From contig CAWGMG010000017.1 of NCBI GenBank assembly GCA_963823615.1, forward strand, positions 52,730 to 116,729: 64,000 nucleotides of DNA, written 5' to 3'. The notes beneath the pieces are model-generated. The model had not been told where the DNA came from. It saw nothing but the letters and a program-made list of their open reading frames with translations, and ran no database searches. Origin of the DNA: an uncultured Verrucomicrobiae bacterium. GTDB lineage: Bacteria > Verrucomicrobiota > Verrucomicrobiia > Chthoniobacterales > Chthoniobacteraceae. Of this stretch, positions 19,351 through 60,945 are shown piece after piece (the first letter of the stretch is position 1; every line of letters begins with the position of its first letter). The position numbers and the translations under genes are program-made.

Positions 19351-19956
19351 GGCTGGGGATAGCCAGGAAAAGCCTACTTTCGCGAGGCGAATTGAGCCAG
19401 CCCAAATAACCCTTCGTGCGGCTTCCGAAGCGGCAGAGAACCGGCCGCAGGCAAGGTGCGGTTACCTGCATGAGGACCGCCGCGTGCGGGTGGCGGCTGA
19501 TGGCAGGGCTGCGAAGACCGCGCCCGCTCAGGCGTGACCCTGATTGCGAGCCGCCGGACGAAATAAAAGTGAAACACTTTTCCAATAGGAGTTGTGAGAA
19601 TCGGTGATTGAATCTTGGGGTGCTCACCGTGCCCTCATCCTCCCGGCAGGCTCAGAACCTCTGGCCCACCGCGGCAGCTGCGCAGTCGCCAAAGGCCCCT
19701 GAGCTTGCCGGCTGGGGAGTGCGTGCGCGGCCGCGCGGCCATGAATGCCGGGGGCCGAACCAGGGCCACGATCGATCGCAAACCGCTCCTGCCCGCGCAA
19801 GCGGCGGAGCACGCCAAACTCCACGCTGCTTCACGTGGTCCGCACAGTCCTCTGTGCGGTCGCCGCTTTCCGGGAAGATCGTCAGTGGCCGCGTTCGTTG
19901 TCTCTCGTTTGAAGCGGCTTCCCATAAAGCCGCGAAAGTCACGCTCGCCCACGCTT

Positions 19957-20590
19957 CCTCTGAGACCGATTCCCGAAATTCCCGAAATGCGCCCCCCACC
20001 ACTCAGCCGACGGCGTAAACTGTGCAAGCCTTCCCGAAACTCACCGCGCCTGCGTTTTTCCTCTGAGACCGATTCCCGTAATTCCCGAAATGCACCCACT
20101 CCCACCCGCTCAGCCGCGGCGAAAACCGTGCAATCCTTCCCGAAACTCCGCCGCGCCCGCGCTTTTCCTCTGAGACCGTTTCCCGTAATTCCCGAAATGC
20201 ACCCACTCCCACCCGCTCAGCCGCGGCGAAAACCGTGCAATCCTTCCCGAAACTCCGCCGCGCCCCGCGTTTCTCCTCTGAGACCGATTCCCGTAATTCC
20301 CGAAATGCACCCACTCCCACCACTCAGCCGGTGGCGAAAACCGTGCAATCCTTCCCGAAACTCCGCCGCGCCCCGCGTTTCTCCTCTGAGACCGATTCCC
20401 GTAATTCCCGAAATTCACCCGCTCCCACCACTCAGCCGGCGGCGAAAACCGTGCAATCCTTCCCGAAAATCCGCCGCGCCCGCGTTTTTCCTCTGAGACC
20501 GATTCCCGAAATTCCCGAAATTCACCCACTCCCACCATTCAGCCGGCGGCGAAAACCGTGCAATCCTTCCCGAAACTCGCCGGGCCAAAC
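19957..20590 (+). repeat. tandem array, 6 units of ~103-109 bp (unit starts ~19957, 20060, 20167, 20275, 20383, 20490)
   Basis: Unit cctctgagaccgattcccgtaattcccgaaatgcacccactcccacc..gcgaaaaccgtgcaatccttcccgaaactccgccgcgcc.. repeated with few substitutions; unit lengths are not multiples of 3. Confidence 0.9.
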
Positions 20591-37866: not shown

Positions 37867-39069
37867 TCAGAACGTCTCCTTGACCTTCCCGCGCGGCGCG
37901 GTGCGCATCTCCTCTTTCGCCGCTTCCACTTTCTCCGCATTCTGGTTGCAGAGCAGCAGGCCGCTGAGCCCGGCGGGCTGATAATAGCGCAGGATGAACT
38001 TCTTTTTCTCCAGCGACCCTTCCAGCTCGAAACGGCTCGGCGGCTTCCCGAAGTCGCCGACGAAGTTGAAATGCAGATCGAGCGCGCGCGCCTCGGCGCT
38101 CGGCACGTACTCGTACTTCAGCCGCTTCTTGCCGGTCATGTTGATGCCCGCGAGCCGGCCTTGCGCCATGGCGGCTTCCCAGTACTCGAACCGCCGGATC
38201 CCGCCGAAAATCCTGCACGGGTAGGCCGCCACGTCGCCGGCCGCGTAGATCCCTTTTTCGTCAGTCTCGAGGTGCTCATTGACCGGCGTGCCGTACGGAT
38301 AGGCGAGCGGCGTCCCCTGCACCAGCGCGAGATTCGGCTCGCACCCGATGGCGACGATCGCGAGCTCGGCGGGAAAACGCTGGCCGCTCTTCGTCTGGAT
38401 GTTCTTGAGGACGGTGCGCCCCTCGAAGCCGTTCACCGTTTCGCCAAGCTGCAGCTTTACGCCGCGCTCGGCGAATTGCTTGGTGATGAACTCGCCCGTC
38501 GCGGGGTCGACCTTCTTGTCCCAGAGCGTCTTGCCGCGGTGCAGCAGCGTGAGCTTGATCCGCGGCCGCGTGATGAGAAGCGTCGCCGCCTCCGCCGCCA
38601 GAAATCCGCCGCCGACGATGACGACATCGCGCTCGAGATCGAGCATCTCGCGCAGCGCCAGCACGTCGCGCATCGTGCGCAGATAGATGACATTGCCGAG
38701 GTTGTTCCCGGCGACGGTCGGCTTGCGGGCGCGCGCGCCCATGGCGAGGCACGCCTTGCGAAACTCGACCGCCTGCCCATTCCCGAGCACCGCCAGCCGG
38801 CGCTCGATGTTGAACTGGGTGACGAACGTGTCGAGCCGCAGATCGACGCGGTTTTTCTCAAACCACGCCGCGTCGTGTTGCAGCAGCTTCTCCGGGACGA
38901 GCGGCTTGCCGTCCAGGCCGTGCTGGAAGAGAAGCGGCCGATGGTAAGGGGCGTAGCCCTCGTTCCCCACGAGCATGATGCTCCCTTTCGGGTCGTGCTC
39001 GCGGATGCCTTCGCACACGCTGGCACCAGCCACGCCTGCGCCGACAATCAGGTAATCACGCCGAATCAT
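37867..39069 (-). CDS. FAD-dependent pyridine nucleotide-disulfide oxidoreductase (AIF/ferredoxin-reductase-like)
   Basis: YLIVGAGVAGASVCEGI (FAD GxGxxG), VVIVGGGFLAAEAA (NAD GxGxxA), YAAGDVAAY. Confidence 0.8.
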   Translation of the reverse strand: MIRRDYLIVGAGVAGASVCEGIREHDPKGSIMLVGNEGYAPYHRPLLFQHGLDGKPLVPEKLLQHDAAWFEKNRVDLRLDTFVTQFNIERRLAVLGNGQAVEFRKACLAMGARARKPTVAGNNLGNVIYLRTMRDVLALREMLDLERDVVIVGGGFLAAEAATLLITRPRIKLTLLHRGKTLWDKKVDPATGEFITKQFAERGVKLQLGETVNGFEGRTVLKNIQTKSGQRFPAELAIVAIGCEPNLALVQGTPLAYPYGTPVNEHLETDEKGIYAAGDVAAYPCRIFGGIRRFEYWEAAMAQGRLAGINMTGKKRLKYEYVPSAEARALDLHFNFVGDFGKPPSRFELEGSLEKKKFILRYYQPAGLSGLLLCNQNAEKVEAAKEEMRTAPRGKVKETF

Positions 39070-39184
39070 ATTTGGGGGGTACAAGGAACATCGTGTCAGA
39101 ACTTCGCGCCGGGTGGAGAAAAAAAAGGACGAGCGCGGGAAAGCCGTGCGGTTGACGCGCGTCACAAGGGAATCGAACGCGGAG

Positions 39185-39284
39185 CCATCCTCTTTCTCAT
39201 CATCCTCATCTTCATCCCCATCAGTCTTCTCTCATTCTGGCAGAGTCAGGAGAGCTGTGGGCTGGGGATGAAGATGATGATCTA
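39185..39284 (-). other. conserved ~100-nt leader-like element, copy 1 (copy 2 at 60080-60179), immediately 5' of a minus-strand gene
   Basis: catcctcttYctcWtcatcMYcatcttcatcccMatc ... aggagag(c/a)tgtgggctggggatga(a/t)gatga is shared by both copies; perfect 15-bp stem tcatcttcatcccca/tggggatgaagatga; minus-strand Met-rich micro-ORF MGMKMRMMRKRM. Confidence 0.5.
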
Positions 39285-39431
39285 ACCAAACAACGAACAT
39301 CTTTTCGACGATCTTCGCGCACACCCTGACGGCGCGCGCCCGCGGGCGGTGGCGCGGAGCAGCGCGAAGCGCACCCCAATCGGCTCCTGAGCCTTGCGAA
39401 GCGCCGGGCTTCCGCTACGGTCCACCTTCCT

Positions 39432-39885
39432 ATGGATTTCCAGGCCCGCATCGACGAAGACCTCAAGAGCGCGATGAAAGCGCGCGAAACGGAGCGGCTC
39501 GGCGTGCTGCGGATGCTCAAGAGTTCGCTCAAGCTGGCCTCGATCGAGCAAGGCGGCGCGGAGGCCCGGCTCGATGACGCCGCCGCGCTGGCGGTCGTGC
39601 GCAAGGAGTTGAAGAAGCGCCAGGACTCGATCGAGGGCTTCGAAAAAGGGAATCGTCCCGAGCTCGCGGCGAAAGAAAAAGCCGAGGCGGAATTTCTGCA
39701 AGTCTACCTGCCGCAAGGCGATGAGCGCCGAGGAACTGGCGGCGCTCGTCGACGCCGCGATCGCCGAAGCCGGCGCGACCTCGAAAGCGCAGATGGGCGC
39801 CGTCATGAAGCTGGCCACGCAAAAAGCCGCCGGCCGCGCCGATGGCAAAGCGCTCAGTGCCGCCGTCGCCGCCAAGCTCCGCTGA
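39432..39885 (+). CDS. GatB/YqeY domain protein (frameshift ~39715)
   Basis: MDFQARIDEDLKSAMKARETERLGVLRMLKSSLK..; C-terminus ..MGAVMKLATQKAAGRADGKALSAAVAAKLR in a shifted frame. Confidence 0.7.
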
Positions 39886-39925
39886 CTGCCGTCTTCACTT
39901 CGTCATTCGTCATTCGTCATTCCCC

Positions 39926-40642
39926 ATGGTCTCCGCCCTCATCGTCGCCGCCGGCAGCTCCCGCCGCATGGGCTTCGACAAGCTCTTCGCGCCGCTCGCG
40001 GGCAAGCCCGTGCTGTGGCATTCCATCAAGGCTTTCAGCGACGCGGCGGAGATCCACGAGATCATCGTCGTGACGAAGGAAGACCAGGTCCCGGAGGTGC
40101 AGGCGCTGGTCGCGAAAGGGAAATTCGCCAAGGTGACGAAGGTGCTCCCCGGCGGCGACGAGCGGCACGAATCGGTCTGGATCGGCTTGCAGCAAATCGA
40201 GAGCAAGGGGAGCGAATTCGTCGCCATCCACGATGGCGCGCGGCCGCTCGTGACGCCGGAATTGATCAGCCGCTGCATCGCCCGCGCGCGCGAAGTCGGC
40301 GCCGCCGGCGTCGCTTCGCCGATCCCCGATACGGTCAAGCGCGCCACGCCCGAGGAGATGGTCACCGAGAGCGTCGATCGCTCGGGGCTCTGGGCGATGC
40401 AGACGCCGCAAATCTTCGCGAGCGGGCTCATCATGCAGGCCTACGCGGCCATCATGTCGAAGCACGAGATGGTGACCGACGAGATCTCCGCGGTCCAGAA
40501 GCTCGGCAAGCGCATCGCGCTCCTGCGCAACGACGACTGGAACTTCAAAATCACCTTCCCGCAGGATTTCGAGCTGGCCGAACACGTCCTCTCGCTGCGC
40601 AGCAAACGATCCTTGAATCCCCCCGTGCCGGCGGCGCCGTGA
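39926..40642 (+). CDS. ispD: 2-C-methyl-D-erythritol 4-phosphate cytidylyltransferase
   Basis: MVSALIVAAGSSRRMGFDKLF..VAIHDGARPLV..WAMQTPQIF. Confidence 0.85.
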   Translation: MVSALIVAAGSSRRMGFDKLFAPLAGKPVLWHSIKAFSDAAEIHEIIVVTKEDQVPEVQALVAKGKFAKVTKVLPGGDERHESVWIGLQQIESKGSEFVAIHDGARPLVTPELISRCIARAREVGAAGVASPIPDTVKRATPEEMVTESVDRSGLWAMQTPQIFASGLIMQAYAAIMSKHEMVTDEISAVQKLGKRIALLRNDDWNFKITFPQDFELAEHVLSLRSKRSLNPPVPAAP

Positions 40643-47210: not shown

Positions 47211-47330
47211 CGAAAACGCGATGCTTCGAGACAAGGATGATGCGTGAAAACCAGGGGGCGTGGTCATGGATAGATAGGCGGCGGGCTGCGTTTATCTTAG
47301 CCGTATCTCTGCAAGACGCGCGCCTCTCCG

Positions 47331-47483
47331 GATGGGTAGCACAGGCGTCCCGCCTGTTCGGCTCGGCGTCCCGCCGAGTCGTCGACACGGCGCGTAGCAT
47401 TCACCAAATGGTGAGGACGAGCGCTTCGCGAGCCGCCGGGCGGGACGCCCGCCGGAACAGGCGGGACGCCTGTGCTACCCATC
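47331..47483. repeat. 153-bp nested palindromic element (29-bp perfect inverted repeat arms plus inner inverted repeats)
   Basis: gatgggtagcacaggcgtcccgcctgttc ... gaacaggcgggacgcctgtgctacccatc; inner ggcgtcccgcc/ggcgggacgcc and caccaaatggtg. Confidence 0.75.
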
Positions 47484-50067: not shown

Positions 50068-50180
50068 ACGTGTCTTCGGCGGGGAGTTATTCACAATTGT
50101 GAGCGAGGTTGGCGAGCAGGAAGCGCGAGACAGAAATGCCGCCGGCGGCTGAGGGGAATTTTGCACATTTTGCAAAGGGG

Positions 50181-50414
50181 TCTCAGAGGAAGAGCGGGCG
50201 CCGTGGCGCCGGAGGCCCTGAGCGTGGCGAAGGTGCCGCAGGCCCTGAGCCGGTCGAAGGGTTTCGGGAAGGTTTGCGCAGTTTCGCGGGACGCTGGACG
50301 AGGCATTTCGGGAATTTCGGGAATCGCGCTCAGAGTAAGTGAAGGAGCCGGCGAGAGGAGGCTGAGGCGAGGTTTCGGGAAGGAATGCGCAGTTTTCACG
50401 GGAGTGGCTGGGCG
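50181..50414 (-). repeat. tandem repeat array (same family as 19957-20590, inverse orientation), part 1: ~2 units ending at the intron 3' junction
   Basis: rc units ..cgaaatgcctcgYccagc..gaaaactgcgcattccttcccgaaac..; terminal palindrome module at 50155-50189. Confidence 0.85.
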
Positions 50415-52498
50415 AGGCATTTCGGTAGAGTAGGCGGGAAGCGACGGATTGAGAGGCACACGGCCAATGACCGTCTGCTTCCCGCCCCTCATCAAACCGG
50501 ACAGGCGGTTTTCCCGCATCCGGCTTTCCGAGTTCCATTCTCGAAAAGCGCTGTCTCATGTGCATGGGGTCGGCATTTTGTAGAGCCCGTATTGCGTGAA
50601 GAGTTCCCGATTTGCCCAGCGTTTGTATTTGCCACAGGGATTGCCGTGCTTGCGCCATAACCACTGCCGGAGGCGGTGGGCCACGAAGGTATTCAGTTGC
50701 CCGAAGCTCCGATGGTACTGGGCGAGGGCAAAGAAATTGCCCCAGCCACGGGTCACTTGGTTGATTTCACGCACGACTTCCTCGGTCGCTCTCCACACGG
50801 AGCGCGCGTGGGTTAGCTCGCGCACCCGGTCGCGGAGCGCCTGCCCCTCGGCGGGCTCGGGGCCTTGAGCTTGTCGAAACGGCTCCGCTTCCGGGCTGGG
50901 CTCGATGTGCACGTACGCCGTCTTCTTCTTGGATTGTTGCCAGCGGAAGCTGAAGCCGAGGAACTCAAAACCGCTTTCACGGCTCTGGAGCACTTCGGTT
51001 TTCTTCTCGTTGAGGGCCAGGCCGCGGCTTTGCAGCCAGCGGGCCAGCCGCTCCTTCATGCCCGCTCCTTGCCCGGTTCCGCAGAGGATGACCAGATCGT
51101 CCGCAAAGCGGACCATCCACGGCTTTTGCCGGCACTGTTCATTGACCCCTTCATCCAGCGGATGCAGGTAAATGTTGGCCAGCAGGGGCGAGATGACGCC
51201 TCCCTGCGGTGCGCCGCAGGGGTTGGCCTTCATCTTCCGCCCGCCGCCTTTCTCCTCCTCCATCACCGGGGCGCGCAGCCATCCTTTGATGAGCTGGAGG
51301 ATCGTCCCGTCCCTCACCCGCCGCGCCACCAGCCGCAGCAGTTTCCCGTGCGGGATCGTGTCGAAGTACTGCGCCAGATCGGCGTCCACTACCGAGGAGG
51401 CGGAGGGGACAAGGGAGGTTGCAGGGCGGGCGAGCCCTTCGGTGCGGCCACTGCGCAGCCCCTGCCGGATCGCCTCCACCGCCCCGTGCGCTCCACGCCC
51501 GGGCCGATAGCCGAAGGAGAGCGGATGGAAGTCCGCCTCGAAAATCGGCATCAGCACCAAGGACACGGCCATCTGCACCACGCGATCCTTCACCGTCGGG
51601 ATGCCCAACCGGCGCACCCCTCCATCGGGCTTCGCGATCTCCGCCCGGAGCACTGGCGCCGGCCGGTACGTCTTGGCGCGCAACTCCTCCCGCAGCGCCT
51701 CCAGCCACGCCACTTCCTTTTCCTGATCTGCCGCAAGGTCCGCAATCTCCACTCCAGCAACCCCCGCGACCCCGCCATGGGCCTTCACGCGCCGCCACGC
51801 TGTCTCCAGCACATCGGCGCGCTGCACCTCTCCATACAGACTCCAGAACCGGGAGCCCGGACTGGACTTCGCTTTCCGATACAGCGTGATTTGCAACTGC
51901 CGAACCTTTTTGGGTGCTGGTAGCTCCTGCGAGCCGTCACCACGGCTCGCCCGGGACCCTGCCGCCACTTGTCCCGTGCGCCGCCGCCTCGGTCCTTCGT
52001 TGCGCTTCACTTCTGCGGAACAAGTGGCGTCCCTTTGCTCCCCCATGTTTTCTCCGAACCAGAGGTCCAGCATGGGATCAACGCTACTACGAACGCCTCC
52101 GACTTCTGCCGTGGCCGCACGGCCTCCCTCTTTCGGAGAGGTTGGGCCGCTTGTTGAGTCAGGTTTACTCGCCATGGCAGATCTCCCCGTTTACCCGCAC
52201 ATCACTTCGCGACATGTCGTCCACGCCGACCCCGCCGGTCTAATATCCCCACCCGCGACGGTTGGTCTGGGTGCGGACTCTTCGGCCTTCGCCCAAATTC
52301 CAGGGGCTCGGCTGCCGGGAGTATCCTTTCGAGGCTCATTTATGTGGTTCATATGGTTATTACGACCTGCCGGTTCGACTCCATGCCTGCTCCCCACCCC
52401 GCCTCGCGGCGACGCAGTTGGCACGGTCTTCGGTGCTGAACCGTCTAAGTGCACCGGCGGGACTTGCACCCGCGTTGATGTGCGCTTTGCGGGCGCAC
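50415..52498 (-). mobile_element. group II intron (2084 nt) with intact RT/maturase ORF
   Basis: 5' end GUGCGCCCG (rc of 52490-52498); domain V aaGCCGGAugCGGgaaaaCCGccugUCCGGuu (rc of 50481-50516); domain VI GGGCGGGAAGC..GCUUCCCGCC then ..uacucuac 3' end at 50415; IEP ORF lies between. Confidence 0.85.
50556..52175 (-). CDS. group II intron-encoded reverse transcriptase/maturase (true start probably at an internal Met, ~52046-52073)
   Basis: RT0-RT7 motifs: ..VLETAWRRVKAHGGVAGVAGV.., IAKPDGGVRRLGIPTVKDRVVQ, FADDLVIL (YADD variant); maturase/X domain; C-terminus GNPCGKYKRWANREL. Confidence 0.85.
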   Translation of the reverse strand: MASKPDSTSGPTSPKEGGRAATAEVGGVRSSVDPMLDLWFGENMGEQRDATCSAEVKRNEGPRRRRTGQVAAGSRASRGDGSQELPAPKKVRQLQITLYRKAKSSPGSRFWSLYGEVQRADVLETAWRRVKAHGGVAGVAGVEIADLAADQEKEVAWLEALREELRAKTYRPAPVLRAEIAKPDGGVRRLGIPTVKDRVVQMAVSLVLMPIFEADFHPLSFGYRPGRGAHGAVEAIRQGLRSGRTEGLARPATSLVPSASSVVDADLAQYFDTIPHGKLLRLVARRVRDGTILQLIKGWLRAPVMEEEKGGGRKMKANPCGAPQGGVISPLLANIYLHPLDEGVNEQCRQKPWMVRFADDLVILCGTGQGAGMKERLARWLQSRGLALNEKKTEVLQSRESGFEFLGFSFRWQQSKKKTAYVHIEPSPEAEPFRQAQGPEPAEGQALRDRVRELTHARSVWRATEEVVREINQVTRGWGNFFALAQYHRSFGQLNTFVAHRLRQWLWRKHGNPCGKYKRWANRELFTQYGLYKMPTPCT

Positions 52499-53210
52499 GG
52501 AATTACGGGAATCGGTCTCAGAGTAAATGAGGGAGCCGGGTGAGCCGGAGGCCCTGAACCTGTCGAAGGGTTTCGGGAAGGAACGCGCAGTTTTCGCGGG
52601 ACGCGTGGGCGTGAATTTCGGTAATTTCGGGAATCGCGTTCAGAGTAAATGAGGGAGCCGGTGAGCCGGAGGCCCTGAGCCTGTCGAAGGGTTTCGGGAA
52701 GGATTGCGCAGTTTCGCGGGACGCGTGGGCGTGAATTTCGGTAATTTCGGGAATCGCGTTCAGAGTAAATGAGGGAGCCGGTGAGCCGGAGGCCCTGAGC
52801 CTGTCGAAGGGTTTCGGGAAGGTTTGCGCAGTTTTCGCGGGACGCGTGGGCGTGAATTTCGGTAATTTCGGGAATCGGGCTCAGAGTAAATGAGGGAGCC
52901 GGTGAGCCGGAGGCCGTGAGCCTGTCGAAGGGTTTCGGGAAGGTTTGCGCAGTTTTCGCCGGTTCCGGTCGTCCCATTCTTCCCCTGCTTCCCGTCCCCG
53001 CGCCCGGTCCGCGACCAATTTCGGTAATTATGGGAATCACCCTCAGAGCGAATGAGCAGATACGGAGGGTAGTTTCGGAACAGATTGCGCAGTTTCGCGG
53101 GAAAGATGGCAGCGCGAGTTTCGGTAAGTGTGGGAATCGCCCTGAGAGTGAATGAAGGACGCGGAGTGGCATTTCGGGAAGGATTGCGCGGTTTCGCGAG
53201 ACGGCGGCCC
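52499..53210 (-). repeat. tandem repeat array part 2: ~4 near-identical 120-121 bp units (starts 52499, ~52613, ~52733, ~52854) then ~2-3 degenerate units
   Basis: Unit gaatttcggtaatttcgggaatcgcgttcagagtaaatgagggagccggtgagccggaggccctgagcctgtcgaagggtttcgggaagg(a/t)ttgcgcagttt(t)cgcgggacgcgtgggcgt. Confidence 0.9.
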
Positions 53211-56928: not shown

Positions 56929-57223
56929 CATAGGCAACCCTGGACCAAATGCGGACCGGTCGCTGCAATGGCGCCCACTCTATGTCAACAATTTGGGTTC
57001 GGCCATCGGCGCATCCAGGTAGCCCTGCCCGCGCCGGCACGGGCGACGTGACGATTCACGTGCTGTAACTCCGGAGCTTGGCGCCGCTCGCTTCCGCACC
57101 AACGCCCGGGAGGGGTGCGCCAGGCGGTGGAAAGGGCGGAGTTGTCATCGCGCACGGGGCGGCTCAGACTCATCGCGGTTCCCTGGGGGCACATCGGGGT
57201 CAGGCGACATTTCTTGACAGACC

Positions 57224-57229
57224 GGGCGG
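57224..57229 (+). promoter_or_regulatory. TTGACA -35-like hexamer ~30 nt upstream of transposase ATG (duplicated at 58809-58814)
   Basis: gggcacatcggggtcaggcgacatttcTTGACAgaccgggcgggttttcgtgaaatcgtcgcATG; whole ~75-nt block duplicated at 58775-58846. Confidence 0.35.
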
Positions 57230-57248
57230 GTTTTCGTGAAATCGTCGC

Positions 57249-58337
57249 ATGCCTCGCAGCTTGCGCATCCAGTACCCCGGCGCGTTTTATCACGTCATGG
57301 CGCGGGGCAATGGACGGGCGGATATCTTTCGCGGCGATGCGGACCGGACGCTTTTTCTCCGCACGCTCGGCGAAGCCTGTGGGCGGACCGGCTGGCGCGT
57401 GCACGCCTGGGTGCTGATGCGCAATCACTACCATGTGGTGCTGGAAACGCCGGAGCCGAATCTGGTCGAGGGGATGCAGTGGCTGCAGAATGCTTACACG
57501 CGGCGCTTCAACACGCGGCACCGCGGCTGGGGCCGGTTATTCGGCGACCGCTACAAGGCGGTGCCCGTGGAGGGGGAAGGGTACTACTACGAGACGCTGC
57601 TGAAATCGCGGGCGCATCACGCGCGCAGTCCGAATACCGTGGAGGGGGAAGGGTACTACTACGAGACGCTGCTGGATTACGTCCACCTGAACCCGGCGCG
57701 CGCGGGGTTGATTCCGATGGCCAGCGGCGGAAGTCTGCGCGACTACCCGTGGAGCAGCGTGGCGGCCGGATACGCGCTGCCGCCGGGGCGCCGGGCGAAA
57801 TGGCTCGCGGTGGAGGACGGCCTGGCGAGCTTTGGCTGCGGCGATACGGCGGCTGGCCGCCGCAGTTTTGTCGCGCGGCTCGATGTGCGCGCTCTGGAGG
57901 AGCCGCGAGCCAAGACGGGCTTGCCGGCGCTCGATCCGGAGCGTGACCGGCGGAGGAGCACGCTGGCGGACGGCTGGTACTGGGGGAGCCAAGCCTTCGC
58001 GGAGCGTCTGCTGGCGCTGGGGGAAGCAGTGATCGGACGTCCCGGGCACCGATCCGCGCGGAGTACGCAGGAGAAGCGCGCGCATGGCGAACTGGTCGCC
58101 CGCGAGCTACTCGAGGAAGGGCTCCGCCGGGCGAAGCTGACCCGTGAAGAGCTCCCCGCTCTTCCTGGGAGCGATCTGCGCAAAGTGGCGCTCGCCAGCG
58201 CGATCTGGGAGCAAACCATTGTGAGCATGGCATGGCTGGCGGAGCATCTGGCGATGCGGAGCGCGGCCAATGCGAGCCAGCAAATTCGCCGCTACCGGCT
58301 GGCCCAGGCCAAGCCGCTGTCAAGAAATGTCGCCTGA
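57249..58337 (+). CDS. IS200/IS605-family Y1 (HUH) transposase, RAYT-like N-domain fused to DnaA-C-terminal-like HTH domain
   Basis: AFYHVMARGNGRADIF..HAWVLMRNHYHVVLETPEPNLVEGMQWLQNAYTRRFN (HuH = HYH; catalytic Tyr in NAYTRRFN); C-terminus SDLRKVALASAIWEQTIVSMAWLAEHLAMRSAANASQQIRRYR resembles DnaA domain IV; internal 36-bp perfect direct repeat 57567-57602 / 57639-57674. Confidence 0.75.
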   Translation: MPRSLRIQYPGAFYHVMARGNGRADIFRGDADRTLFLRTLGEACGRTGWRVHAWVLMRNHYHVVLETPEPNLVEGMQWLQNAYTRRFNTRHRGWGRLFGDRYKAVPVEGEGYYYETLLKSRAHHARSPNTVEGEGYYYETLLDYVHLNPARAGLIPMASGGSLRDYPWSSVAAGYALPPGRRAKWLAVEDGLASFGCGDTAAGRRSFVARLDVRALEEPRAKTGLPALDPERDRRRSTLADGWYWGSQAFAERLLALGEAVIGRPGHRSARSTQEKRAHGELVARELLEEGLRRAKLTREELPALPGSDLRKVALASAIWEQTIVSMAWLAEHLAMRSAANASQQIRRYRLAQAKPLSRNVA

Positions 58338-58715: not shown

Positions 58716-58797
58716 GCACATGGGGGTCAGCACATGGGGGTCAGCACATGGGGGTCAGCACATGGGGGTCAGCACATGGGTCAGCACATGGGGGTCA
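58716..58797 (+). repeat. tandem 14-bp repeat cacatgggggtcag x~6, an amplification of a unit present once at 57199-57212
   Basis: cacatgggggtcagcacatgggggtcagcacatgggggtcagcacatgggggtcagcacatgggtcagcacatgggggtcag. Confidence 0.85.
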
Positions 58798-58843
58798 GGC
58801 GACATTTCTTGACAGGCCGGGTGGGTTTTCGTGAAATCGTCGC

Positions 58844-58905
58844 ATGCCTCGCAGCTTGCGCATCCAGTACGCCGGCGCGTTTTATCACGTCATGGCGCGG
58901 GGCAC
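58844..58905 (+). pseudogene. truncated duplicate of the transposase 5' end (first ~20 codons plus promoter block)
   Basis: MPRSLRIQYAGAFYHVMARG identical/near-identical to 57249-57308, then diverges into the antisense 3' end of the HK gene. Confidence 0.6.
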
Positions 58906-58949
58906 TGCCTCGACACCTACTCGTAAACTCAGCCGCGGGCGCGCCCGGT

Positions 58950-60065
58950 CTACACGGCCGCGGCTGCGTACGGCGGCAACCGGAACCAGAAACACGCGCC
59001 GCCCGTCGGGCTGGGCCGGTAGCCGATCGTGCCGCCCCAGCGCTCGACGGTGATGCGGCAGAAGTAGAGGCCGAGGCCGGCTTTGCCGCGGATGCCGCCG
59101 GCGCTGGGCGCGAGCTTTTTGAAGAGATGCGGGAGCGCGGACTCGGGGACGCCGCGGCCGGAATCCATGACGGCGGCTTCGATCAGCTCGCCTTCGCGGC
59201 GCAGTTGGATGACGAGCTCGGTGCGCGGCGGGACGTGGCGCAGGGCGTTTTCGAGGAGGTTGGCGAAGATGCGCTCGAGGCGGGTCGTCTCGGCGGCGAC
59301 GAGGCAGGGGGCGCCGAGCGAGGGGTCGACGACGAGCCGCGTGGTGATCTCGTGGCGCCGGCAGGCGATGGTGACCTGGTCGAGCGCGGATTGCGCGACG
59401 GCGCGCAGGTCGGGCGCGGTCTCGGGCGTGAGGGTGAGCGATTCCAGCGCGGCGGCCTCGGCGGAGAAGACCTCGAGGATTTGCTGGATGAGGGTCCGCT
59501 GGCGGCGCGCCGCGTCGCCGGCCATCTCGACCATGCGCGTGATGCCGGGCGAGAGCGCCTGGGTTTGCAGAATGTCGAGCAGCCCGCTCATGCCGGCGAG
59601 CGGGTTCGCGAGGTCGTGAACGATGCAATGGACGAGCACTTCTTTTTTCTCGATCTCGCGGGCGAGCGCCTCGTGCTCGAGCACGGCGTGGCGCGCGGGA
59701 TTGAGGATCAGGAACTGGCGCGTGTGCTCTTCGTCGACGCGGTTGACGAGGAGGAATTGCTCGCCGTCGCGGGCGAGCGCCACGGCGGCGAAGTGCGAGC
59801 TGGAAAGCGCCGTCTCGGTCCAGATGCCGGAGTGGATGGTGCCATCGCGCCCGGCGGTCCAGAAGGCCTCCGCTTCCTCCATGAACTGGCTGAGGAAATG
59901 GGAGCGCTTTCCGACGACGAAGACCTGCGGGACCAGGGTGCTGGTGACGAGCGGCTCGCACCAGAGCGGCACGGGATAGAGCGCCTCGAACAGGCCGGCG
60001 GCGGTGCGGCGAAAGGCCATGCTCTCCAGCGCGGAGAGGAGTTGCTCGAGGGTGGAGGGCGTCAT
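58950..60065 (-). CDS. sensor histidine kinase (cytoplasmic sensory domain - HisKA - HATPase_c)
   Basis: H-box VHCIVHDLANPLAGMSG; N-box RIFANLLENALRH; G-boxes DSGRGVP and GLGLYFCRITVERWGG. Confidence 0.85.
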   Translation of the reverse strand: MTPSTLEQLLSALESMAFRRTAAGLFEALYPVPLWCEPLVTSTLVPQVFVVGKRSHFLSQFMEEAEAFWTAGRDGTIHSGIWTETALSSSHFAAVALARDGEQFLLVNRVDEEHTRQFLILNPARHAVLEHEALAREIEKKEVLVHCIVHDLANPLAGMSGLLDILQTQALSPGITRMVEMAGDAARRQRTLIQQILEVFSAEAAALESLTLTPETAPDLRAVAQSALDQVTIACRRHEITTRLVVDPSLGAPCLVAAETTRLERIFANLLENALRHVPPRTELVIQLRREGELIEAAVMDSGRGVPESALPHLFKKLAPSAGGIRGKAGLGLYFCRITVERWGGTIGYRPSPTGGACFWFRLPPYAAAAV

Positions 60066-60079
60066 TGGGGGTGGTGGCT

Positions 60080-60179
60080 CATCCTCTTCCTCTTCATCAC
60101 CATCTTCATCCCAATCGTTCTGTTTTCATTCATCCGGGTGGGAGCAAGGAGAGATGTGGGCTGGGGATGATGATGAACC
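60080..60179 (-). other. conserved ~100-nt leader-like element, copy 2; abuts the HK start codon; minus-strand micro-ORF ..IGMKMVMKRKRMSHHPQ* whose stop overlaps the HK ATG (ATGA)
   Basis: See copy 1 at 39185-39284; a third partial copy of the purine-rich arm (atgaagatgatgaggatgg) at 60376-60394 on the + strand. Confidence 0.5.
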
Positions 60180-60219
60180 GGAATTATGCAATTGGCGCGC
60201 GCGCGATGCCCGTAACACA

Positions 60220-60338
60220 GGCTTCCAGCCTGTGCGGCTCGCGGGCTTCCAGCCCGTCGAAGGAACTCACCGGTCGCTGAGTCCGGCGGCGGCGGCTTCG
60301 GCAGGCTGGAAGCCCGCCGGACGCACAGGCTGGAAGCC
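60220..60338. promoter_or_regulatory. four copies of 11-bp near-palindrome GGCTTCCAGCC (2 direct at 60220 and 60244; 2 inverted at 60304 and 60328) upstream of the HK gene
   Basis: caggcttccagcctg .. gggcttccagccc .. aggctggaagccc .. aggctggaagccc. Confidence 0.45.
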
Positions 60339-60429
60339 CGGGTTACGATGGCGCCGCGTCCCTCGATTTGCATACATGAAGATGATGAGGATGGCTTCGT
60401 GTTCACGCGCAATGTGATCCGTCGCGGCA

Positions 60430-60945
60430 TCAGGGGCGGGGCCGCACCAGTTGCGCGGCGGGCTTGGCCAGCGTCAGCTCCGCGAGCGCCTGAAAACCGG
60501 TGGGGACTTGCGCGCCGGTCTTCGCGCTGGTCCGGAAAGACGCCAGACCCTCGGGCACGGCAAGCTCCGCCTCGGAGCCTTCCACGAACAGATCGCATTT
60601 ATTGAAGAGGACGATCGACGGGACTTTTCCCATGGTCTCCTCGATCCGCCGGCGCAGCCCGAGCGCGACCTCGAGCGTGCCGTGCCGCGTGATGTCGACG
60701 ACGTAAACCAGGCCGTGGGCGCCGGCGAGGTATGAGAGTTGCACCGAGTGAAAGGCGTCCTCTCCCGCGAGATCCCAAAGGATGAGCGAGACCCCGCCAG
60801 CGCTGGTTTCAACGACGGCGGTGTCGATCTTGACGCCGACCGTGGTGAGGTAGCGATCCGTGAAGACCCCTTTGCAAAAGCGATGCACGAGGCTCGTCTT
60901 GCCGACGGCGAACGCTCCGATCATGCATATTTTTCGCTGTTCCAT
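60430..60945 (-). CDS. Ras-like small GTPase
   Basis: G1 GAFAVGKTS, G3 WDLAGE, G4 NKCDL, G5 SAK. Confidence 0.8.
   Translation of the reverse strand: MEQRKICMIGAFAVGKTSLVHRFCKGVFTDRYLTTVGVKIDTAVVETSAGGVSLILWDLAGEDAFHSVQLSYLAGAHGLVYVVDITRHGTLEVALGLRRRIEETMGKVPSIVLFNKCDLFVEGSEAELAVPEGLASFRTSAKTGAQVPTGFQALAELTLAKPAAQLVRPRP

Follow-up and report, generated by a model that had tools for sequence, protein, structure and literature searches.

The Correia (CREE, Neisseria) and ERIC (enterobacteria) MITEs are ~100-200 bp long, have no transposase coding, carry long inverted-repeat arms that fold into a hairpin once transcribed, and occur in many intergenic copies, often just 5' of genes, which differ in presence or absence between close relatives (PMC10969869). 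Short target duplications and a tendency to nest and cluster with other repeats are further traits of these elements (PMC10969869). We found these traits, including an apparent duplication at the one insertion that could be tested, in a sequence that occurs twice in a 64,000-nt stretch of DNA (the window) from an uncultured bacterium of the Chthoniobacteraceae. Unlike those of Correia and ERIC, the arms of this element are strand-asymmetric (one without G, the other without C), 3-nt periodic and of microsatellite-like length; the extremes of the inserted block lack clear terminal inverted repeats, no sigma-70-like promoter was found in the element, and no partner insertion sequence is known.

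REPINs, doublets of REP sequences mobilized by RAYT tyrosine transposases, also consist of two inverted half-units around a spacer and form a hairpin of at least ~100 nt (PMC3116915, PMC3337134, PMC3733652). As with REPINs, isolated half-copies of our element occur, a weak strand bias in its mismatches would fit recognition of single-stranded DNA, and an IS200-like Y1 (HUH) transposase gene lies ~1.7 kb from one copy. It differs in that the element half is not itself a short GC-rich palindrome, and in that the copy 2 insertion appears to have a target duplication, whereas Y1 transposition makes none. REP and REPIN sequences are GC-rich palindromes of 20-40 bp in which a conserved tetranucleotide, GTAG (or CGTC), tags one end (PMC3733652), and such a tag is absent from the ends of the element.

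Rickettsia palindromic elements (RPEs), like other MITEs that give rise to in-frame fusions, are ~150-bp palindromes through which ribosomes may read (PMC10969869). Comparable cases here are locus L002 (external loci are numbered L001 onwards), where an arm encodes the N-terminus (MKMKMKMRRKS) of a lipoprotein signal peptide and supplies its start codons, and L003, where the frame of the downstream gene is open through part of the hairpin (the ORF starts at GTG 4743). Unlike RPEs, no copy of our element was found within a conserved coding region; all are between genes or at gene starts. Finally, the trp, his, leu and thr attenuators resemble the element in having a short ORF rich in a few amino acids beside a hairpin upstream of a gene. 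In contrast to these attenuators, the element has no terminator/antiterminator pair or U-run, is not conserved with its gene, has its ORF on both strands and adjoins downstream genes unrelated to Met/Lys/Arg metabolism.

We consider it probable that both window sequences are copies of an undescribed, non-autonomous, MITE- or REPIN-like palindromic interspersed repeat found mainly in Chthoniobacteraceae (Verrucomicrobiota). MITEs are smaller than ~600 bp and carry no transposase gene; here the units are 100-160 bp and composites at most ~500 bp, with no gene-like ORF. The inverted-repeat arms expected of MITEs are represented by stems of 15-34 bp, and there are multiple dispersed copies with presence/absence polymorphism among relatives. 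An autonomous element with matching ends was not seen in the ~230 kb of sequence fetched, and our literature search found no such repeat described for Chthoniobacter or Verrucomicrobia.

Anatomy of the two copies and of the family

Copy 1 (39185-39284) and copy 2 (60080-60179) were found to share ~80% column identity in the window alignment, with both arms conserved (repeat family D19). An earlier note on this DNA had described two conserved copies of ~100 nt with hairpin potential, and our analysis reproduces this, with a long hairpin in each. The mutual complementarity of the arms and the perfect 15-bp stem that it reported for copy 1 are confirmed (39206-39220 pairs with 39263-39277), and the variability of the loop is likewise borne out, the central sequence being unlike from copy to copy. 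The 16-mer TGTGGGCTGGGGATGA is exact at both sites, as compared with a shuffle expectation of 0.54 matches at up to three mismatches. On the plus strand, copy 1 comprises a left arm without G, built of CTC/TTC/ATC triplets and ending in CATCTTCATCCCCATC (39186-39222), a central loop that differs among copies (39223-39247) and whose pyrimidine-rich left half can pair with the GGAGAG side, and a conserved core with the right arm (AGGAGAGCTGTGGGCTGGGGATGAAGATGATGATC; 39248-39282). The corresponding plus-strand parts of copy 2 are the left arm (60080-60116) and the conserved core with the proximal right arm (AGGAGAGATGTGGGCTGGGGATGATGATGA; 60147-60176); this copy reaches well past the ~100 nt first noticed, and the inserted block of which it is part extends over 60066-60423.

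The element as a family is a long imperfect palindrome with a full unit of ~120-160 bp. Its left arm (plus strand) is devoid of G and consists of (CTC/TTC/ATC)n triplets, its centre is a variable 40-70 nt, and at the right a core, GAGAG-NN-GTGGGCTGGGG, stands just before the right arm, which is the complement of the left, (GAT/GAA/GAG)n, terminating in ...GAGGAWGR. Each strand thus reads outward as GGGGATGAAGATGA...GAGGAWGR, one frame of which encodes M-K-M-M-(K/R)n-M. Arm length changes in hexamer steps, (CTCTTC)n in L001 and (GAGGAT)n in L003, in the manner of a microsatellite. The outer arms vary among copies, yet complementarity within each copy is kept: there is a perfect stem of 34 bp in L006, L009 and L002 have different arms, and every full copy has a stem of 15-34 bp. 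Hairpin energies across copies range from -33 to -94 kcal/mol. The arm termini (...GAGGAWGR / ACTCTTCC...) have ~50% GC and are not self-palindromic. An arm ending GAGGATGGCTYCG is common to the copy 2 distal arm, the copy 1 left arm and L001, and a close variant, GAGGAGGATGGCTTCG, ends the distal arm of L007. Half copies and composite copies also occur.

Sites with and without the element

Copy 2 lies on the kinase side of a Roc/Ras-family small GTPase gene (60430-60945, minus strand; Ras, E = 8e-26) and immediately upstream of a histidine-kinase gene (HisKA + HATPase_c; 58950-60065, minus strand). The kinase start that the earlier note had placed at 60065 agrees with orthologues of identical length (371 aa). 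Kinase orthologues on L016, L017 and L018 have 94, 88 and 87% protein identity, respectively; an exact look-up of the window kinase protein returned no record. In all three orthologous loci the GTPase stop overlaps the kinase start with no spacer (TGATG; TAATG in L017), and by BLAST the flanking segments are 2-17 nt apart as against ~370 nt in the window. This comparison of aligned junctions shows that the window carries a 358-bp insertion at the GTPase-kinase junction (60066-60423, plus strand); a single insertion is a far likelier event than a precise deletion in each of three lineages independently. The inserted block contains copy 2, a nested block and the distal arm, with short segments at its ends. 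The empty-site evidence comes from this one site.

The junctions on the minus strand of the window read ...TGATGCCGC|GACGG... and ...CCCCCA|ATGACGC CCTCC, and the empty site in L016 reads TGATGCCGCCCTCC. The alignment suggests that 7 bp of target sequence, the kinase start codon among them, were duplicated. Its left copy, ATGCCGC (60424-60430, minus strand), is the ancestral kinase start and still overlaps the GTPase stop (TGATG), and its right copy, ATGACGC (60059-60065, minus strand), now provides the kinase start codon; the two flanks match over 7 bp with one mismatch (strictly 3 bp) in a single empty-site comparison. A consistent target duplication was not seen around the other full copies (L006, L009, L002), and the terminal 10-30 nt on the two sides of the inserted block (TGGGGGTGGTGG... 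and ...CAATGTGATCCGTC) do not form inverted repeats with each other. Two other loci were tried as a second empty site and set aside: L009, at grpE-dnaJ, was unusable due to contig frameshifts, and the sole close homologue of L003 belongs to the same population and has its composite too.

The right arm of copy 2 is split by a nested, REP-like inverted-repeat block of 199 bp composed of GGCTTCCAGCC hairpins (60177-60375, plus strand), which has a self inverted match of 76% over 139 nt and is bordered on both sides by ATGA, a possible 4-bp duplication. The earlier note had interpreted a purine tract at 60376-60394 as a third copy of the arm. The tract exists, but it is the outer half of the copy 2 right arm rather than a third copy, because joining the two halves restores pairing with the entire left arm: once the nested block is removed, the distal right arm (ATGAAGATGATGAGGATGGCTTCG; 60376-60399, plus strand) continues the proximal one and pairs with the distal left arm, and the folding energy of the joined arms on the plus strand moves from -39.7 to -57.4 kcal/mol. 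The GGCTTCCAGCC hairpins form a second, REP-like repeat family, some of whose members adjoin CGTC or GTAA; relatives are present at 47329-47480 of the window and at L001 1433-1584, L005 1191-1398 and L019 25-40. Nesting of repeats is typical of clustered MITE/REP regions (PMC10969869).

Copy 1 has an FAD/NAD(P)-binding oxidoreductase gene to its left (37867-39069, minus strand) and a YqeY-like gene to its right (ORF as listed, 39432-40073, plus strand), and is therefore in a divergent intergenic region. Here too the start given by the earlier note, 39069 on the minus strand, agrees with orthologues of identical length (400 aa). Alignment with L019, L024 and L025 indicated that the proximal upstream region (39070-39124, minus strand) is the only intergenic part common to the orthologues; the sequence beyond a T-run, with copy 1 in it, is specific to the lineage. 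The upstream region of L024 and L025 (96% protein and 92% nucleotide identity) lacks copy 1, and its similarity to the window ends at the T-run ~55 nt upstream of the ATG with unrelated sequence beyond. No element is present upstream of the oxidoreductase in L020 and L021 (79% protein identity) or in L022 and L023 (75%), whose upstream neighbours differ from those of the window. L019 (93%) was left unscored, as its contig stops after 98 nt, possibly inside a purine arm. The window oxidoreductase is 96% identical to the protein of MAG DASYIS01, which indicates that the window derives from a close relative of that MAG.

Joined to the right arm of copy 1 is an extension, TAACCAAACAACGAACATCTTTTCGACGATCTTCGCGC... 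(39283-39375, plus strand), which has 75% identity over 129 nt between the window and L005. The same junction between right arm and extension recurs in L003, L005 and L007, three copies from another genome, so that the extension is part of a composite or nested repeat rather than gene-specific sequence. In L003 and L007 the right arm is interrupted where copy 2 has its GGCTTCCAGCC block, but by another structured block of ~330 bp, and the sequence that follows the copy 1 right arm (39283-~39375) corresponds to the first ~40-95 nt of this block type. The ~330-bp block occupies L003 4722-5048 and L007 5612-5938 (MAG DASYIS01), and L009 100-240 holds the terminal part of one like it. Within the block are CCGTCCCGGAGGGACGG hairpins as well as long inverted repeats (ATTAGCCGGTGGTGCAGCGAG...). 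It represents a third interspersed repeat family, which moves as a composite with the palindromic element. We also considered whether the extension, read as MKMIITTNNEHVFDD..., was a conserved protein N-terminus, and rejected this reading on account of an in-frame TAA in the window copy and substitutions that are non-synonymous.

Further copies and neighbouring repeats

External copies were sought in three collections by exact match to a 20-mer from the right-hand core, and as all of them were found with this one 20-mer, the invariance of the core, the excess of right halves and the copy counts are biased. About ten further copies were detected in all, most of them in one sister Chthoniobacteraceae MAG. 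The one-genome-per-species collection (185,579 species) contained eight loci with the 20-mer: six in this MAG (DASYIS01), one complete copy from a contig assigned to a Solirubrobacterales bin, and a chance coding match. JGI metagenomes provided three more copies of the element, from soil, in addition to chance matches. Viral contigs, searched with the 20-mer and a two-arm gapped pattern, gave chance matches only, one on a low-GC papillomavirus-like contig and the other on the same contig as L011. A core profile run with nhmmer against all 229 kb of fetched sequence yielded no extra diverged copies. L004, L010, L011, L013 and L014, which have the 20-mer or most of it without the remaining element, were taken as chance or coding matches.

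The earlier note had proposed that the copies precede genes as leaders, and the wider search contradicts this, in that the neighbours of further copies are unrelated and some copies are at gene 3' ends, a distribution of the kind that the note itself had named as refuting its idea. L012 adjoins carB; L006 adjoins rpmI-rplT and an ABC ATPase; L009 is between grpE and dnaJ; L002 is between glycosyltransferase and lipoprotein genes; L003 adjoins an S9 peptidase; and L007 adjoins a transporter and a DUF7133 protein. Gene 3' ends are abutted by the right end of L009, which is at the grpE stop, by L015 and by the distal arm of L003. By contrast, the alternative that the earlier note had mentioned, a small repeat, is supported by the dispersal of the copies and by their presence or absence among relatives.

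L002 is on contig CAVUUS010000003.1 (1.98 Mb, 64-67% GC), binned as Solirubrobacterales (Actinomycetota), where the full copy is ~400 nt from the contig end; either this contig has been misbinned or mislabelled, or the range of the element extends beyond Chthoniobacteraceae. In this copy (L002 1-361, minus strand) the left arm, read as its reverse complement, begins the lipoprotein signal peptide (...FRGVALALTLVLAAC|QK). Immediately before the element is ATGAACCACCGGAGCGCTCGGCCGCAAAAT, which if joined to the downstream sequence would read MNHRSARPQNFRGVALALT..., so that it may be the displaced original start of the lipoprotein. Contigs end inside the element or inside nested repeats at L001, L008, L015, L019 and L028, and these repeats therefore probably break short-read assemblies of this lineage.

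Other repeats are present in the window. The Y1 transposase gene mentioned above (57249-58337, plus strand; 362 aa; Pfam Y1_Tnp, E = 4e-9) has its 5' end and ~60 nt of upstream sequence duplicated downstream at 96% identity (57189-57312; 58716-58797; 58784-58907), and five tandem copies of GCACATGGGGGTCA precede this downstream duplicate. The GCACATGGGGGTCA unit contains a GGGGWSAS motif that has been reported from repeats flanking RAYT-like 'TIRYT' genes (PMC3733652). A link between this gene and the palindromic element was considered and rejected, because the gene is flanked by the unrelated GCACATGGGGGTCA repeats and the duplicated 5' end and not by the element. REP and REPIN sequences border a RAYT gene in inverted orientation. 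Two tandem arrays with periods of 107-108 and 120-121 nt occur at 19955-20586 and 52500-52960 (also 50156-50404 and 53026-53203); they have a common unit, ATTTCGGGAATCG..CTCAGAG..GAGCCGGAGGCCCTGAGCC.., in opposite orientations, and one adjoins a minus-strand match to Rfam RF00029, a group II intron domain (50425-50528). The arrays themselves had no Rfam match.

Alternative functions, mobility and significance

We weighed the mobile-repeat reading against explanations in which the element serves gene expression. The earlier note favoured a leader-peptide attenuator or riboregulatory 5' leader, in which translation of a Met/Lys/Arg micro-ORF would control the hairpin and hence expression. The minus-strand micro-ORFs that it described are indeed present, as is the ATGA with which that of copy 2 ends over the kinase start; both window copies are 5' of minus-strand genes, and several external copies are 0-130 nt upstream of a start codon. 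Against this, the element is missing at orthologous positions of both the kinase (87-94% protein identity) and the oxidoreductase (75-96%), the genes that adjoin it have nothing in common functionally, and the length and sequence of the micro-ORF and its distance from the gene vary widely (0 to ~95 nt, with an in-frame fusion in L002); neither micro-ORF length nor stop position is conserved among copies. The micro-ORF is found on both strands simply because the element is palindromic: its arms read outward as ATG/AAG/AGG on either strand, so micro-ORFs follow from arm composition. Furthermore, no convincing terminator-like structure with a U-run was seen on either strand, which leaves an attenuator with nothing to act on; the single terminator-like match (60067-60086, plus strand), which falls in the left terminal segment and the first part of the left arm, is weak and within shuffle expectation. 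The micro-ORFs are not amino-acid-sensing leader peptides, and with the element absent at the orthologues and no terminator in place we regard regulation by such a leader as extremely improbable.

Very unlikely, in our judgement, is a small structured RNA family, a trans-acting sRNA or cis-antisense RNA made from the plus strand, with the CU-rich left arm or the GUGGGCUGGGG core as the functional part. Both window copies share a conserved core that is asymmetric, and in four of five same-direction gene pairs the core is antisense to the operon; the plus strand folds somewhat better than the minus strand in 7/10 constructs (-57.4 versus -37.8 kcal/mol for the joined copy 2 arms, -93.6 versus -80.1 kcal/mol for L006), and T.G mismatches in the arms outnumber C.A mismatches by 25 to 14. 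This strand bias, however, is not significant (~p = 0.1), comes from non-independent copies and fits recognition of single-stranded DNA by a transposase equally well. A sigma-70 promoter scan gave no match, and Rfam 15 returned no family at gathering score in the whole window and nothing relevant at E <= 10 in 39050-39450; the best matches were plant and animal miRNA hairpins (E > 0.05, at most 25 bits versus the 70-96 required), which are spurious. The covariation analysis that the earlier note had recommended (RNAalifold, nine copies) did not favour an RNA either: the covariation term was ~0 because the pairs of the inner stem are invariant, and the consensus structure contains no compensatory changes. 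Microsatellite-like variable arms and nested insertions would also be unusual for a functional sRNA. The strand asymmetry nevertheless leaves some room for strand-specific selection at the level of RNA or single-stranded DNA.

Translation across the insert was a further consideration. A 122-codon stop-free 'bridge' ORF (60062-60430, minus strand) spans the whole of the copy 2 insert, including the nested block. Its first codon, the ancestral ATG, overlaps the GTPase stop, its terminal TGA overlaps the kinase ATG, and the micro-ORF of copy 2, ..IGMKMVMKRKRMSHHPQ*, is its tail. The other five frames are closed, shuffled sequences keep this frame open in ~2.5% of cases, and the single mismatch in the target (C to A) creates the terminal TGA. 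The bridge ORF may preserve translational coupling. These findings, together with arms that have no stop codons in 5/6 frames and AUG-rich tracts that face outward, could indicate a spacer beneficial to the host, transparent to translation, whose stop-free arms and outward AUG tracts keep operons coupled. Similar ORFs occur in L009, starting right after the grpE stop and ending 34 nt before the dnaJ ATG, and in L002, starting 11 nt after the upstream stop and ending 16 nt before the lipoprotein ATG, and full copies have 1-3 open frames versus 0.5-1.7 in shuffles. The pattern was noticed post hoc in three cases, however, two of them (L009 and L002) on contigs with frameshift errors; L003 and L007 lack a bridge from the upstream stop, the codon-position GC of the bridge ORF (0.56/0.59/0.66) is not gene-like, and the open frames are mostly due to arm composition. 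We therefore consider a spacer maintained for the benefit of the host unlikely. A related proposal, that the element itself is built for ribosome crossing, such that it can enter a coupled operon junction and still pass ribosomes downstream, here by means of the bridge ORF, seems to us rather unlikely. The open frames suggest that a capacity to be read through by ribosomes may be the reason why operons tolerate the element.

Returning to a non-autonomous mobile repeat, the sequence comparisons show that copies have inserted into intergenic DNA and operon junctions; copy 2, judging from its empty sites, entered the overlapping stop/start of the GTPase-kinase operon with apparent duplication of the 7-bp target, and the REP-like inverted-repeat block was inserted later into its right arm. 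Movement would have been catalysed by a putative transposase supplied in trans. By analogy with Correia and ERIC elements, a co-transcribed element would place a long hairpin (-33 to -94 kcal/mol) in the mRNA, which would be expected to affect how the message is processed, or its stability, and how the gene that follows is translated.

For annotation of Chthoniobacteraceae genomes and MAGs, these results mean that the hairpins and their Met/Lys/Arg micro-ORFs should not be called leaders, sRNAs or small proteins. Copy 2 provides a clean natural case of a stop/start overlap split by a repeat, and is suited to tests of translational coupling. The family as a whole is a verrucomicrobial addition to the small set of bacterial palindromic mobile repeats, with arms that are unusual in being strand-asymmetric, triplet-periodic and length-variable.
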